From NCBI GenBank assembly GCA_027622665.1, contig JAQBYT010000022.1:1-60328 (forward strand): a DNA stretch of 60,328 nucleotides, written 5' to 3'. Every line of letters starts with the position of its first letter. The first letter of the stretch is position 1. A program made the position numbers and the translations under genes. The notes under the pieces are model-generated. The model did not search any database. It was not told the origin of the DNA and saw nothing but the letters and a program-made list of their open reading frames with translations. This document shows positions 55,488 to 60,328 of this stretch, one piece after another. This DNA is from Verrucomicrobiota bacterium. Lineage in GTDB: Bacteria > Verrucomicrobiota > Verrucomicrobiia > Opitutales > Seribacteraceae.

Positions 55488-56507
55488 ATGAGCAACGCAT
55501 CTCTAAAACTTCATAATGCCATGTGGCCCGGACTCGTGGGCAAGGGAGGCGATGAAGGGCAAGAGCCCCCCATCAGTCTCGAACGGATGCTCGATCTTTC
55601 CGCAGGAGCCGATGTGGATGGCCAAAAGTTCGATGGCATCGATTATTTCCTCTTCCTCCCTCACACCAACCCCGAAGCTTCCGACGATGAGTTGAAGGCA
55701 ATTGCGGATAGCATCACCGGACGTGGCTTTGCCATCGGCTCGCTAGTGGCTCCCGTTTGGCCCGGAACGGTGGGCGATTCCGCCATGGGGACGGCGGAAC
55801 AACGCGGAAAATTTATCGATGCGGTTAAGATGGCTTGCCGTATTGCGAAGGTCTTCAACGAACACGGAGCCCGTAACTACGGCGTGATCCGCATCGACTC
55901 GGCTGAGTTCGGGGTGGAGAAGTGGCGCGAGGATACTGGCGCCAACACCGCCATCATCGTCGAAACTTTCAAGGAAGCCGCCAGAATAGCTGCCGATCAT
56001 GGCGAGCGTCTTGCTGCAGAGGGTGAAATTTGCTGGGCGGGTATGCATAGCTGGAAGGATATGCTGGACTTACTCGAGGGCGTTGGTATGCCCGAAACCC
56101 TTGGCTTCCAAGCCGACCTCGCTCACACCTACCTCTACACCTTGGGTTACAATGCTCCCGAGCACGTACTGTTGCAGGAAGGTTACTCCGAGGAAGAGTT
56201 CTATGCCGCCTACGAGCAGATGACAGACAAGCTTCGTCCATGGACCATCGACTTCCACGTTGCCCAGAACGATGGACAGGTTCACGGAGCCGGTTCTCAC
56301 GATAAGACGGGGAAGCACTGCCCCGCGGACGATCCGAATGGGAAACTAGATATCACGCGCTGCTCTCAATACTGGCTCAAGGATTTTGAAAGTCGTGGCA
56401 TCAAGCACATCTGCTGGGATGGTTGCATGTTCCCCAACTCCACTTTGGAGAATCCCGAGACTTGGAACGTCATCCTCAAGGCGATGCTCGACGTGCGCGA
56501 CTCCTAG
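55488..56507 (+). CDS. Sugar isomerase/epimerase, xylose-isomerase-like TIM barrel
   Basis: Motifs [28 protein letters not shown] and CWDGCM. Substrate unknown. Confidence 0.8.
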
Positions 56508-56759
56508 TCGTAATTCAGCGGCAGTCTGCTAAGCGGTCTCCCGAGCACGGAGAGGTTTCATCCTCTCTTCTTGTGGCTTAGGTCGCCGGATGTTCTTTTA
56601 GCCTGATTCTGGCTGGAAATACTAATCATGTTCTATTTCTGGCAAGGGAATTATTGGCTTTCAATAAGTTTAACAATCATTATTGGTTAGTTCTTCTTAT
56701 CCCGGAAGTAAGGCGGGCTAAAGAAGATGAGGTCAATCGGATTTCGACTTGTAGATTTC

Positions 56760-57313
56760 ATGGCACGTGGAAATCGTCGGGAGAATATTGTTCTGGGTGA
56801 CGACGACCGCTGGATGTTCCTGCACACTCTGGGAGAGATGGCCGGACGAGCCAGCCAATCGATTCCGGCAAAATCCTCTGGCAGGGCCAAAGTCTGCAAT
56901 CCACCTTGAAACGAGGCTGGTATTTTGGAGCACAGGAGTTTCGGGAGAAACTACTTTCCTGTCTGGAAACAGAAAAAGCTAATTTGGAAAGAAAAACCCC
57001 AAGGCGATACACCGGTTGAGAACTCAAAGCCTATGACGAGCAAGTGGCGGAAGCCATCGTGCGTGCGGGTTTGAAAGAGCTGGGGCTTGCACACAGCGCA
57101 CTGGCTGATCTCCCGAAGAACGCTCCAGCCAAAGCCCTGCTAGCGCACATCATCACGGAACAAACCAGCGTGCCGCAACAATGGATCGCGCAAACCCTTC
57201 ACATGGGCAGTGCCCCCTATGTCAGCAAACTGGCCAAGGAAATGAAGCAAGCCATACCAAGGAGCAAAAAATGGCGAGATGTTAAACAGAGCATTATAAG
57301 ATTTATCACCTGA
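56760..57313 (+). pseudogene. Internally deleted RAYT (REP-associated tyrosine transposase, IS200/Y1-like)
   Basis: MARGNRRENI...DDDR..FL.TLGE at 56760, then in another frame LKRGWYFGAQEFREKL (stop at 57017) and KALLA...TSVPQQWIAQTLHMG. The HUH and catalytic-Tyr core is missing. Confidence 0.8.
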
Positions 57314-57338
57314 CCCTTTTCTTTACGGTGTGGAGTGG

Positions 57339-57757
57339 CGGGGGCGGATGCGGGAGTTGCCCTGCGCGGTCGCTGGATTGCCACGTCGCTGCGCTCCTCG
57401 CAATGACAATGTTGTGGGCATGGTGTTTCATCCCGGTATTTCGGGCGCATCCCCCAAAGTTGTCATTGCGAGGAAGGTCTCGCAGAGAACTGACGTGGCA
57501 ATCCAGTCGGGGGCGGATGCGGGAGTTGCCCTGCGCGGTCGCTGGATTGCCACATCGCTGCGCTCCTCGCAATGACAATGTTGTGGGCATGGTGTTTCAT
57601 CCCGGTATTTCGGGCGCATCCCACAAAGTTGTCATTGCGAGGAAGGTCTCGTAGAGAACTGACCTGGCAATCCAGTCGGGGGCGTGGTGCGGGATGCCCG
57701 AGGCGATGCGTCCCCCAAGGCTGTCATTGCGAGCCACAACGTGGCGCGGCAATCCAG
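57339..57757. repeat. REP/BIME-like array: 169-bp tandem unit x2 plus an extra palindrome
   Basis: Units start at 57339, 57508 and 57677 (partial). Each holds an inverted pair ctggattgccac...ctcgcaatgac / gtcattgcgag...ggcaatccag; a fifth element lies at 57723-57757. Confidence 0.9.
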
Positions 57758-57802
57758 CGAAACCGTAATGCGGGATGCCCAAGCGATGCGTCTCCCCTTT
57801 AG

Positions 57803-58005
57803 AAGGCAGGAAAGGGGTCATTTCGTAATGTTTAAGGTTGCCTTTGCTTTCAGTATGTGGATGTTCCTTTGTTTATGGCGCGAAGTTTACGAATTGAACG
57901 AGCCAAGGGAGTGTGTCATATCATCAACCGTGGCAATGACCGGCAGAAGGATATTGCTTATTATGAATTTATTCGTACATTACGCAATGACCTCATCTAT
58001 GCCTT
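57803..58005 (+). mobile_element. RAYT-derived miniature element, copy 1
   Basis: Left end aaggcaggaaaggggtcatttcgtaatgt; encodes MARSLRIERAKGVCHIINRGNDRQ; degenerate right inverted end acattacgcaatgacctcatctatgcctt. Confidence 0.8.
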
Positions 58006-58172
58006 GGAAGGCTGCGGGCAAAGCTGGGCAACGAGCTCTGGTGAGCAAGAAGCTAAAGAATGATTCTTTGAGGTTTTCGCAGATGCAAGTGATCATTGAT
58101 GCCCTTCCCTTCCTGACGCGATTTGGAATAGAGGCTGAAATTCGAGTGAATGACCATTTAGATAAGCCGTGA
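58006..58172 (+). pseudogene. Orphan 3' gene fragment coupled to the downstream gene
   Basis: Open frame ...KAAGKAGQRALVSKK...EIRVNDHLDKP* begins at the element end. Its TGA overlaps the GTG at 58169. Confidence 0.45.
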
Positions 58173-59035
58173 AAAATTATTTGTTTATAGCGTTTTCCAT
58201 GATCCTAAGCTTGTTCTGCCGCGCTGAACAACAGGTTGTGCTGGACCTGAATGGAGGAGTTACGTGGCAGGAAATCTTTGAGGCAGGGTTACGCCCAAGT
58301 CACTTAAGCGACGGAATAGACATATGCCGTCAAGCCAATGTTAATCTTTCGATAAGGAGTATTTCTGGGGATATCTTACACCTAGGGAGAGGTGATATTA
58401 ATTTAAGCGTAAGAGAAGGTCATTTGCTTGTGGTACTCTCTTTCCGCGGTCGAGAAAAGCGCAGTTTGAAAGAAGCTCGCGCGAAGAGCAGATCGTTTGT
58501 AAAAATGCTGAGTGAACACGTAACCCAACAAGCCTCGCTCGACACTTTTCGAGTCAAGCACGAGGTGGATTATCGCGGGCGAAAAATCGACCCTCCGGAA
58601 ATAGAAGAACACGTCGATTTGAAGACCGCAACCAATGCAGCCAAGATCGACGACTTTTCGGTTATCTATCGCTTTAGCGACTCCTATTTCGATGACTTGC
58701 CTCTAGTGGAGCGGCTTTCCGTGACGCTCAAATCACAAGAGGCGAAACGCGCTAAGCGCCTGAATGAAAAAATCCGGCCTCCTGCGGGTTATGAGCATAT
58801 CTCCTTGGAGCCAAATCAAGTGGCGGAGAAGCCAGAGAAAAGAGTCTCCAACGGGGAATCTAGACAAGATAAAGAAGATGTTAGATCTTCTCAATCGAGA
58901 AAAAAACAAGAAGTCGAACGCGAAGAGACAGTCGAAGTGAAGTCATCCAACCTTCCATGGATCATCGCAGGAGTTCTTCTCGTGGGAATCCTCGCCCTCC
59001 TCTTCAAAACCTTCAAAGGAAAATCCACCTCCTAA
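58169..59035 (+). CDS. Secreted hypothetical protein with a conserved C-terminal TM anchor (cassette 1)
   Basis: Signal peptide MKNYLFIAF...CRA, charged linker and LPWIIAGVLLVGILALLFKTFKGKSTS. Confidence 0.85.
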   Translation: MKNYLFIAFSMILSLFCRAEQQVVLDLNGGVTWQEIFEAGLRPSHLSDGIDICRQANVNLSIRSISGDILHLGRGDINLSVREGHLLVVLSFRGREKRSLKEARAKSRSFVKMLSEHVTQQASLDTFRVKHEVDYRGRKIDPPEIEEHVDLKTATNAAKIDDFSVIYRFSDSYFDDLPLVERLSVTLKSQEAKRAKRLNEKIRPPAGYEHISLEPNQVAEKPEKRVSNGESRQDKEDVRSSQSRKKQEVEREETVEVKSSNLPWIIAGVLLVGILALLFKTFKGKSTS

Positions 59036-59084
59036 CCGCTGCCGCGAGGATCAACGTCCAAATCTAAAGGTCAGACCTTTAAAC

Positions 59085-59285
59085 AGGCAGGAAAGGGTCA
59101 CTTCGTAATGTTCAAGGTTTCCTTTGCTTACAGTATGTGGATGTTCCTTTGTTTATGGCGCGAAGTTTACGAATTGAACGAGCCGATGGAGTGTGTCATA
59201 TCATCAACCGTGGCAATTTCCGGCAGAAGGATATTGCTTATTATGAATTTATTCAAAACATTACGAAATGACCCCTTTCTGCCTT
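59085..59285 (+). mobile_element. RAYT-derived miniature element, copy 2
   Basis: Near-identical to copy 1. The right end acattacgaaatgacccctttctgcctt is the reverse complement of the copy-1 left end except for one missing C. Mini-ORF at 59155-59271. Confidence 0.85.
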
Positions 59286-59297
59286 TTTAATAAACCA

Positions 59298-60131
59298 ATG
59301 AAAATATTATTAATTTTTTACTTAATTGTTAATGGATCACTCGAGGCTAAAGAGCCATGGGAAGTCACGGTTACTCCTTTGTCTAAAGAAGAAAAGGTAA
59401 TAGATGAAACAATGAAACAATTAGTGATGTTCGGAAAGCCTACTCCTTTGTCTAAAGAAGAAAAGGTAATAGATGAAAAATTGAAACAAATAATGATGTT
59501 CGTAGTGGACTACGCATCAACTGGAAGAAAGGCCACAAAAGAAGAAATACAATTAATTGATGAACTTTATCAAAATGAGAGTTCGTCCAAAGTGGCTATC
59601 TATGCAAAGGCTTACTCTTTTGCAACTATGTCTATAGCGAAAGATATTAGTGTATGGAGTAAAGAATTACCAATCCTTCTTAAATCTACGCAGCTTGCAG
59701 GATTTGCGATTGATGCTGTCTACTATGTTTATAAGAAAGGAACACGAAAAGAGAAACTGCATTTACTCAAGGAACGAAAACTCCAAGAGCAATTGAATGA
59801 ATCTTTATTGAATGAATCTTTAGAAAAGTTTGATGCCGAAAACTTTGCAGCCAAAATTAATAAGATCTCTGAGTTGGTGAAAGAAAACAAATATCTACTG
59901 GACGAACCTGATTTGTCTAAAAATTTGCGTGGTGTTAGACGCGGGGATGAAGGAGAGGAACCTTTCGGAAATGATTTAGTGTCAAAGCCAAAAAATCAGA
60001 ATGAGCCTCTGCAAGAAGTTTTAGAAGCCGAACCATCTCCAAGCCGTCTTCCGTGGATCATTGTTGGAGTTCTTCTCGTGGGAATCCTCGTTCTTCTCCT
60101 CAAAACCTTCAAAGGCAAATCTACGTCGTAG
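59298..60131 (+). CDS. Secreted hypothetical protein with a conserved C-terminal TM anchor (cassette 2)
   Basis: Signal peptide MKILLIFYLIVNGSLEA, AT-rich body and LPWIIVGVLLVGILVLLLKTFKGKSTS. Confidence 0.85.
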   Translation: MKILLIFYLIVNGSLEAKEPWEVTVTPLSKEEKVIDETMKQLVMFGKPTPLSKEEKVIDEKLKQIMMFVVDYASTGRKATKEEIQLIDELYQNESSSKVAIYAKAYSFATMSIAKDISVWSKELPILLKSTQLAGFAIDAVYYVYKKGTRKEKLHLLKERKLQEQLNESLLNESLEKFDAENFAAKINKISELVKENKYLLDEPDLSKNLRGVRRGDEGEEPFGNDLVSKPKNQNEPLQEVLEAEPSPSRLPWIIVGVLLVGILVLLLKTFKGKSTS

Positions 60132-60260
60132 GGCTGTCGCAGGATCGATTAGCGATGAAGTCGATATGGATGCTCAATATGGATTTCAAAACCCCAAAAA
60201 GGGTCGGTCCTAGTACGCCTGCGAAGGCAGGAAAGACAAGGCAGAAAAGGGGTCATTCCG

Positions 60261-60328
60261 AAGGCAGGAAAGGGGTCATTTCGTAATGTTTAAGGTTGCC
60301 TTTGCTTTCAGTATGTGGATGTTCCTTT
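60261..60328 (+). mobile_element. RAYT-derived element, copy 3 (left end; runs off the window)
   Basis: Identical to 57803-57870; preceded by stuttered partial left ends at 60224-60259. Confidence 0.8.

Follow-up and report, generated by a model that had tools for sequence, protein, structure and literature searches.

Copies of a TIRYT element alternate with two tail-sharing genes in a Verrucomicrobiota genome: a likely pile-up of mobile DNA

Described systems and how the array compares

RAYT-like genes flanked by long inverted repeats have been named TIRYTs, and the units that they form TIRtrons (Di Nocera et al., 2013, PMC3733652). We describe here a family of such elements in the genome assembly of a Verrucomicrobiota bacterium of the order Opitutales (GenBank GCA_027622665.1, hereafter G000; 4.52 Mb, 66 contigs), three copies of which alternate with two genes for predicted membrane-anchored proteins (genes 1 and 2) at the end of contig JAQBYT010000022.1 (C7). 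The window, i.e., the whole stretch of 60,328 nucleotides that was analysed, is the whole of this contig.

Many TIRtron repeats contain the sequence GGGGWSAS, present in most, not all, of the described cases, and some of them constitute moderately abundant families occurring in dimers or clusters (PMC3733652). Quentin et al. (2018, PMC6006769) equate most TIRYTs with subclass 2.1 of the TnpA-REP-like proteins, long proteins with a C-terminal helix-turn-helix (HTH) extension (Bac_DnaA_C, HTH_23 or HTH_28). The element of the window is a member of this already described TIRYT/TIRtron kind, with a RAYT-like Y1/HUH transposase (PF01797). It has in common with the described cases a gene for a protein of ~330 residues with a long C-terminal extension, terminal inverted repeats of ~30 nt, a gene 3′ end that overlaps the right repeat, and ends that form a genomic repeat family, partly in dimers or clusters. 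It differs by the presence of at least five long copies, versus typically one or a few genes, by a defined ~200-bp deletion derivative found at three sites, and by an HTH that was not detected with Pfam. A similar relationship is known for the REPINs, inverted-repeat doublets that are non-autonomous and whose movement is attributed to a Y1 transposase encoded by the gene beside them (Bertels and Rainey, 2011, PMC3116915; Bertels et al., 2017, PMC5581495). However, REPINs are made of short palindromic REP hairpins and their RAYT is single-copy, whereas here the ends do not fold by themselves, parts of the gene are retained in the miniature, and the gene is present in multiple copies, at least five of them long.

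On the side of the genes, the rAID-1 clusters of Bacteroidales are described as arrays of orphan immunity genes that are associated with a recombinase and have intergenic repeats resembling those of integrons (Ross et al., bioRxiv 10.1101/471110), and orphan immunity genes are also reported from type VI secretion system (T6SS) arrays of Vibrio cholerae (PMC5361080) and from an immunity islet of Salmonella Typhi (PMC7400221). The window resembles rAID-1 in its co-oriented low-GC (guanine plus cytosine) genes of putative orphan immunity type, its repetitive intergenic sequence and its probable horizontal acquisition. In contrast, rAID-1 arrays have a XerD-like recombinase at their 5′ end, comprise up to 31 genes and show homology to T6SS immunity genes, whereas here we found no recombinase in the array or upstream of it, two genes that fall in no known immunity family, and a repeat that is a transposon miniature. 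The initial annotation, made from the letters of the window, knew of no named system with this organisation; in fact the element type carries the name TIRtron/TIRYT, and the rAID-1 arrays had been described.

Integrons combine the integrase IntI, the site attI and cassette arrays with attC sites. As in integrons, repeats alternate in the window with co-oriented, promoter-poor genes of foreign composition. However, no IntI was found, the repeat, to which no attC model was applied, derives from a transposon and has most of its copies at other places of the genome, the genes number two and are irregularly spaced, and no variation was seen in four studies. Orphan cdiA-CT/cdiI and rhs modules provide a further comparison. 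In such toxin-immunity modules, as apparently here, a gene of immunity type persists beside mobile-element debris, along with a 3′ fragment of the partner gene that was displaced; the difference is that the host genome is without a homologue of the six partner proteins examined, and that delivery, toxin activity and neutralisation are all putative here.

We conclude that mobile DNA has likely piled up in this array, which would then not represent a novel type of integron. The explanation that we consider probable is that miniatures of a multi-copy TIRYT element transposed into an acquired islet carrying two orphan genes of immunity type, whose toxin-like partner was lost.

The array and the element family

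The order along C7 is copy 1, gene 1, copy 2, gene 2 and copy 3, with the elements and both genes all on the + strand. BLASTN and the repeat search confirmed the positions at which a ~200-bp repeat had been seen to alternate with two genes in one orientation. The features of the region are the following, with the basis of each in brackets.

56655..57320, + strand: remnant of a second TIRYT-type transposase gene, decayed and internally deleted (two pieces match the transposase P0058, frames broken)
57339..57800, no strand: GC-rich palindromic repeat cluster of a dispersed family, separate from the element (repeat search, BLASTN)
57803..58004, + strand: miniature TIRYT copy 1, left end intact, outer right inverted repeat decayed (same deletion junction as copy 2 and the copy on contig C18)
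58005..58169, + strand: remnant of the gene for a large modular secreted protein, of which the 3′ end with the last 55 codons is left (match to a 973-residue protein of genome G723)
58169..59035, + strand: gene 1, with signal peptide, alpha/beta body, charged linker and C-terminal membrane anchor; predicted orphan immunity-type gene (neighbourhoods of homologues, AlphaFold)
58952..59034, + strand: tail-coding DNA of gene 1, LPWII...KGKSTS (86% identical to 60048-60130, 73-91% to foreign tails)
59085..59285, + strand: miniature TIRYT copy 2, complete, with 34-nt inverted arms (repeat search, BLASTN, junction alignment)
59298..60131, + strand: gene 2, with signal peptide, all-helical body, GC content of 33-38%, charged linker and the same anchor (open reading frame; start placed from the homologues P0048, P0032 and P0049)
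60223..60260, + strand: two partial, stuttered copies of the outermost left end (60238-60260 is 91% like 57803-57825)
60261..60328, + strand: left end of copy 3, cut by the contig end, miniature or full-length (repeat search, BLASTN; among five left ends stopping at contig ends)

Copies 1 (57796-57974) and 2 (59076-59254) were 91% identical over 179 nt in the repeat comparison and 91-92% identical over 203-212 nt by BLASTN; copy 3 (60260-60328), which the contig end cuts, matches the initial 69 nt of copy 1 with 100% identity. Terminal inverted repeats of ~29 bp had been attributed to the element. This holds for copy 2, whose 34-nt arms are 88% complementary, and in part for copy 1, in whose right arm a 15-nt core is kept with one mismatch and the outer ~13 nt have decayed. 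The distances between element and gene are irregular (165 and 12 nt upstream of the genes, 50 and 130 nt downstream). Three of the eight left ends of the genome lie inside 2.5 kb; random placement gave such clustering in 88 cases out of 2,000,000, and the clustering is not due to chance. No single public contig spans the GC-rich repeats between the contig core and the array, whose linkage relies on the assembly of the window itself and on a 76.6-kb contig that is reported as the source of both proteins. Extension past 60328 was not obtained from public contigs, which end at 60289-60290, inside the repeat.

In G000, BLASTN recovered copies of the repeat on C7 (three) and C18 (two), left parts cut off at the ends of C50, C15, C31, C7 and C18, and right parts situated some hundreds of bases away from the ends of C51, C49, C58, C27 and C5. 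These last five contig ends encode the 3′ portion of a transposase gene. The 223-residue translation from C5 is 99% identical to P0058, a metagenome protein of 342 residues annotated as a transposase, which has at least 713 relatives of ~330 residues, several of them named from Opitutales or Coraliomargarita. P0058 matches PF01797 (Y1_Tnp) with 40.2 bits (cut-off 23), carries the motifs HFH and YVHLNPVRAG and has a C-terminal extension of ~200 residues; it remains under the cut-offs of the NCBIfam families REP_Tyr_transpos (49.5 bits, cut-off 80) and transpos_IS200 (24.6 bits, cut-off 55). The IS200/IS605 elements differ by a TnpA of ~150 residues and by subterminal hairpins without inverted repeats, versus 342 residues and inverted ends here.

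When ends were counted by their core and flanks, we obtained eight left and nine right ends in the genome, including one solo right end on C18. The element has inverted ends of ~30 nt with a GGGGTCA core, the transposase gene starting 40 nt inside the left end and stopping inside the right end, and the inverted-repeat core GGGGTCAT matches seven of the eight positions of GGGGWSAS. The ~200-bp miniature consists of the left end with the first ~25 transposase codons, followed by the last ~13 codons and the right end; the derivation from a RAYT, proposed in the initial annotation, is thereby borne out. The deletion junction, GGCAATnnCCGGCAG joined to AAGGATATTGC, is common to all three complete miniatures (copies 1 and 2 and one on C18), whose flanks differ. 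Because one junction is present at three different sites, the miniature was copied to new sites after the deletion took place. The longer copies, at least five, break the assembly, and an intermediate form without ~0.43 kb was recognised by eye on C51 and C58. In folding, the inverted ends of the complete miniature pair into a long hairpin (z -4.2); for a hairpin within single ends, folding was no better than in shuffles (z -0.3 to -1.5). A search of 56400-60328 against Rfam at E<=0.1 gave no match.

Element DNA was recovered in none of 60 related genomes, eight of them from the same genus, and was found only in this species. The exact 20-nt inverted-repeat core occurs at seven outside loci, six of which are in three metagenome-assembled genomes (MAGs), two of Coraliomargaritaceae and one titled only Verrucomicrobia, and the seventh in a Myxococcales MAG. 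At one locus of a Verrucomicrobia MAG (L034, 1440-3070), a related TIRYT left end is present in two identical ~65-nt copies, which flank a 400-residue open reading frame (ORF), and it seems that another mobile element landed there inside the left end.

Other observations were made on the ends of the family. Stuttered left-end bases (beginning AAGGCAGRAAAG) directly precede a full left end at 60223-60283 of the window and near 95-140 of C18, a pattern suggestive of insertion or repair events recurring at the terminus of the element itself. Two long copies (C51, 22300-25263; C58, 19000-21991) have right ends that adjoin uncharacterised low-GC genes (32-46%), and it seems that the element family accumulates in foreign DNA. 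On C18 (L041, 1-2546, minus strand) we observed in succession a tyrosine recombinase (Phage_integrase), a DUF2726 gene, a miniature with the solo right end, a low-GC (39%) ORF for a multi-pass membrane protein of 138 residues that matches no known family, and, where the contig stops, another left end. The arrangement forms a second unit of element, gene and element, in which the gene bears no tail.

The array sits in a patch of mobile debris. Two pieces upstream of copy 1 match P0058, one (56727-56906) over its residues 25-48 (E 0.002), the other (57044-57310) over residues 258-332 with 29% identity (E 2e-7). The left boundary of this transposase remnant, 56655, is approximate and was set at a two-copy stretch with doubled depth and a 140-nt copy on C45; these left 140 nt recur at 27955-28094 of C45 with 94% identity. 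The following GC-rich cluster (57339-57800) contains two 169-nt tandem units, 98% identical, and palindromic GTCATTGCGAGG-type units. Its family gives 76 BLASTN hits in 27 contigs, often at contig ends, with a very high metagenome depth, and a minority contig of the metagenome run X5, in which this species reaches ~200x DNA depth, joins 57315/57320 to 57805 without the cluster.

The two genes, their tail and the upstream partner

The proteins of gene 1 (288 residues, GTG start) and gene 2 (277 residues) can be aligned over their last 52 residues only, with 54% identity. Their final 27 residues are identical at 24 positions, and the tail-coding DNA is 86% identical over 83 nt; the dissimilar bodies and near-identical tails reported previously were thus recovered by alignment. 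AlphaFold gave an alpha/beta model for gene 1 (mean predicted local distance difference test score 72) and an all-helical model for gene 2 (mean 60). We found no Foldseek match at E<=0.001 for either fold. The best VIA-align result for gene 1 was a Z of 5.9 (DcrB), in a range called common arrangement, and for gene 2 a contact-dependent inhibition (CDI) immunity chain at E 0.084 is no more than a lead. Judging from the signal peptide, the C-terminal anchor and the basic end, both bodies are predicted to be periplasmic. The tail scored 14.6 bits against LPXTG_anchor, under the cut-off of 15.9. A role of the tail as a sorting signal with a dedicated enzyme was also considered and is doubtful, as the genome has two such genes.

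Gene 1 has 23 near-full-length relatives (47-72% identity, one of them named from Luteolibacter pohnpeiensis) and gene 2 has three relatives, and nearly the same tail terminates ~30 further proteins with unrelated bodies. Genes 1 and 2 are the only tail-bearing genes of the 4.52-Mb assembly. In the 75 other genomes of the family, neither the gene-1 and gene-2 families nor the tail were found, and gene-1 homologues were present in four of 400 genomes sampled across the class, three of these in one other family. The GC content is 33-50% in the gene region and 33-38% in gene 2, versus ~55% in the flanks. Both genes were likely acquired, given this low GC content and their absence from the 75 genomes of the family. 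A search of viral contigs with the tail profile gave 114 pattern matches, none of which was confirmed. Within gene 2 we noted a 69-nt tandem duplication (59372-59502, 94% identical) that repeats a stretch of 23 residues; one unit fewer is present in the 84%-identical relative P0048 and in a diverged strain of run X16.

The tail is conserved at the DNA level too. Tail DNA is 73-91% identical among loci of genomes that cannot otherwise be aligned, codon choice coincides at 277 of 448 identical-residue positions versus 146 expected (the pairs not being independent), and in some loci the similarity extends 10-25 nt beyond the stop codon. Tail genes with different bodies at three metagenome loci (L017, L018 and L019) have in common a 3′ flank of ~60 nt (beginning GGCTGTCGCCGTATCGGAG), whose first ~25 nt are common to genes 1 and 2 of the window.

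In other genomes, the tail genes lie directly behind a gene for a large secreted protein, often overlapping its stop. Homologues of gene 1 overlap the stop of a protein with the same C-terminal module in G723, G767 and G526, not in G655 (three of four genomes). This module, of ~480 residues, starts at an LLPVE motif and was recovered, in a search of 1.84 billion representatives, as the C-terminus of proteins of 327-2111 residues with different N-termini, while the N-terminal part of the gene-1 partner occurs separately on other proteins; the modular secreted protein has 3638 relatives at E<=1e-3. The arrangement of a polymorphic toxin-immunity pair, with the gene just behind that of a modular protein having an exchangeable C-terminus, is present for gene-1 homologues in these three of four genomes. 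The 165 nt that separate copy 1 from gene 1 are not a spacer and encode the last 55 residues of such a partner, 28 of the 55 being identical to residues 920-973 of the 973-residue protein of G723 (pairwise E 9e-14; tblastn E 3e-7). For the remainder of the partner gene and for five other partner proteins, no match was found in G000 (E<=1e-5). At L019, the protein encoded before the tail gene carries a peptidoglycan amidase domain at its C-terminus (Amidase_3, E 4e-32), and an ESM Atlas search with the C-terminal part of the gene-1 partner was uninformative (best score 0.77).

Side by side, the upstream secreted proteins (L039, 3334-6252 on the - strand, L017, L019, L021, L022 and L040) have an LLPVE/LLPVD motif in common, beyond which their C-terminal parts are unrelated (one Amidase_3, one DUF3238 and one DUF2515-like). 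The motif looks like a boundary of exchangeable C-terminal modules.

Gene 1 likely has the anatomy of an orphan immunity-type gene with the stub of a displaced partner, as its homologues' neighbourhoods and the remnant suggest, and both genes of the window are likely orphan genes of immunity type, their partner having been lost. An immunity-like role had been guessed at in the initial annotation, and the position of the homologues behind modular proteins, together with the partner remnant in the window, makes this guess plausible.

Association of element and genes, and the origin of the array

Four of the 17 element ends are within 200 nt of a tail gene, all four in this array; the other 13 lie beside sulfatase-like, tRNA, low-GC or other unrelated genes, or at contig ends. 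The tail profile recovered eight metagenome loci. One of them, L016, belongs to the same species and shows element, gene 1 and element on a contig of 1780 nt. The element was found near the tail gene in none of the seven foreign loci, five of which (L017-L021) have BLASTN similarity to G000 in the tail only and two (L022, L023) none at all. Six Verrucomicrobia loci with related inverted ends had no tail gene and no relative of gene 1 or gene 2. Against the integron integrase model TIGR02249 (cut-off 265 bits), the best score in the whole genome was 105 bits, on C5, and C7, which ends at 60328, gave no match; the tyrosine recombinase of C18, at 44.8 bits, is far below it.

The initial annotation had named a fixed array order as grounds against its proposal, and the order was indeed fixed in the four runs compared. 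Contigs covering 57945-59160, 59249/59255-59401 and 59449-60289/60270 had 0 differences and similar depth in four runs from four studies, a weak test of stability since these runs hold what seems to be one strain. The diverged strain of X16 has a gene-1 piece with 21 differences in 806 nt, and its gene-2 contig, without one 69-nt unit, runs into the left end of copy 3. Joints from a right end to a left end were seen on one contig each in X4 (59284 to 60263) and X16 (59278 to 60261). They were rejected, the shorter side measuring 33 nt (X4) and 29 nt (X16), which is too short, and they are ambiguous because the element ends are inverted repeats of each other. Runs X14, X17 and X19 had a low share of window words and patchy cover, and their holes were not interpreted.

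In the pile-up that we favour, the full-length transposase would move miniatures in trans, and three miniature copies would have transposed into a small horizontally acquired islet with two genes for membrane-anchored proteins. Their clustering might reflect the dispensable, AT-rich nature of this foreign DNA, or local hopping beside existing ends. The upstream partner would be an antibacterial toxin, and the products of genes 1 and 2 would act in the periplasm to neutralise toxins of this type. The role of the elements would be that of passengers, which may have truncated the partner gene, and not that of a capture machine.

Several results weigh against this explanation. The tight cluster of three insertions, all in gene orientation, is far above chance, and we account for it only by inference. 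Neither a target-site duplication nor a clear target motif was seen by eye at the ends. To our knowledge, transposition has never been demonstrated for the TIRYT class of transposases, and none was seen here either. The PF01797 search of G000 gave a single unrelated match, on C51, the central part of the transposase gene not being in the assembly, and the C-terminal extension had no Pfam match to an HTH at E<=10 for the 223-residue fragment or at E<=1e-4 for P0058. The 1057-nt gene-2 contig of X16 matches the window from 59290 on, within 5 nt of the right end of copy 2, the 124 nt before being unmatched; the array is therefore not invariant in all strains, and the breakpoint fits an insertion polymorphism of copy 2. 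As for the immunity part, Pfam and NCBIfam gave nothing above cut-off for either gene or for the tail alone, fold matches were weak (best Z 5.9, Foldseek E>0.01), and the partner of gene 1 had no known toxin domain, DUF2515 scoring 23.4 bits under a cut-off of 24.3. The immunity role is putative, as is any partner of gene 2.

The initial annotation had proposed an integron-like array in which the element plays the part of attC; the miniature would then be a site where a Y1 transposase inserts, excises and reorders tail-gene cassettes. Such integron-like capture would agree with the alternation of elements and genes in one orientation, with the clustering above chance, with the second unit on C18 and its low-GC gene for a small membrane protein, and with the X16 breakpoint at the right end of copy 2; the joints of X4 and X16, one contig each, could also be read in its favour, but they have 29-33 nt of near-palindromic sequence per side and are explained equally well by adjacent or stuttered ends (60223-60283, C18). 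It is very improbable and close to refuted, as 4 of 17 ends touch tail genes and 0 of 7 foreign tail loci hold the element, the junctions are identical in four studies, the distances between element and gene are irregular, a truncated gene adjoins copy 1, no integron integrase was found and the genome has two tail genes. Capture or shuffling of genes by the element is thus not supported. Two copies could also have acted as one unit, a composite transposon with genes 1 and 2 as its cargo. IS200/IS605 Y1 enzymes act on whichever ends they meet, the copies are in direct orientation, the ends of copy 2 are complete and the genes are foreign to the family. However, element DNA is limited to this species among 60 relatives, with related ends in its own family, the Coraliomargaritaceae, whereas relatives of the genes belong to other lineages and are without the element; the genome shows no second unit of gene plus element, and the right end of copy 1 is decayed. 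We regard such cargo as quite improbable, if somewhat less so than capture. An artefact of collapsed or mis-joined repeats has a negligible chance of explaining the array. The contig does end inside a repeat, and five left and five right ends stop at contig ends, but independent contigs from four studies cover each element-gene junction with 0 differences, and the separate 1780-nt contig L016 has element, gene 1 and element.

Two further possibilities concern what the miniatures and the tail may do. The orphaned genes might be transcribed from the transposase promoter of the miniatures, domesticated as expression modules, which is compatible with the pile-up explanation. The genes likely have no promoter of their own, since in other genomes their homologues begin before the upstream gene has ended. 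Only 12 nt separate the right end of copy 2 from the start of gene 2, and copy 1 is 165 nt before the start of gene 1; both copies retain the transposase start region and a mini-ORF of 44-68 codons in gene orientation, and such transcription would account for the shared orientation of genes and elements. On the other hand, the promoter scan gave five sites versus 3.3 +/- 1.8 in shuffles, none of them in left ends, the one promoter-like site on the + strand lay inside copy 1 only, and neither promoter-like nor terminator-like sites were in excess over shuffles. We consider this role unlikely. A more elaborate possibility, still rather doubtful, is that the tail with the first ~25 nt of its 3′ flank, and LLPVE upstream, are the homology arms of an exchangeable cassette made of a toxin C-terminus and an immunity body. 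The 73-91% identity of tail DNA and the codon excess (277 of 448 versus 146) would then follow from the tail being a recombination arm. The cassette would belong to an undescribed polymorphic toxin system of aquatic Verrucomicrobia, and the present Coraliomargaritaceae genome, without such a toxin, would have taken up two orphan immunity genes as a defence against its neighbours, the miniatures transcribing them.

Whatever the role of the genes, a deletion junction shared by three sites, together with at least five long copies in one species, constitutes clean genomic evidence of recent activity in trans, and this species is a candidate in which TIRYT activity could be sought. The array also illustrates that a repeat-gene-repeat-gene pattern can come from the pile-up of transposons in foreign DNA, without a capture system. 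If the immunity reading is true, genes 1 and 2 would be orphan immunity genes against a toxin family that the bacterium does not itself encode, outside gut Bacteroidales and Proteobacteria, and they would draw attention to the modular secreted proteins of Verrucomicrobia, a large family that is uncharacterised.

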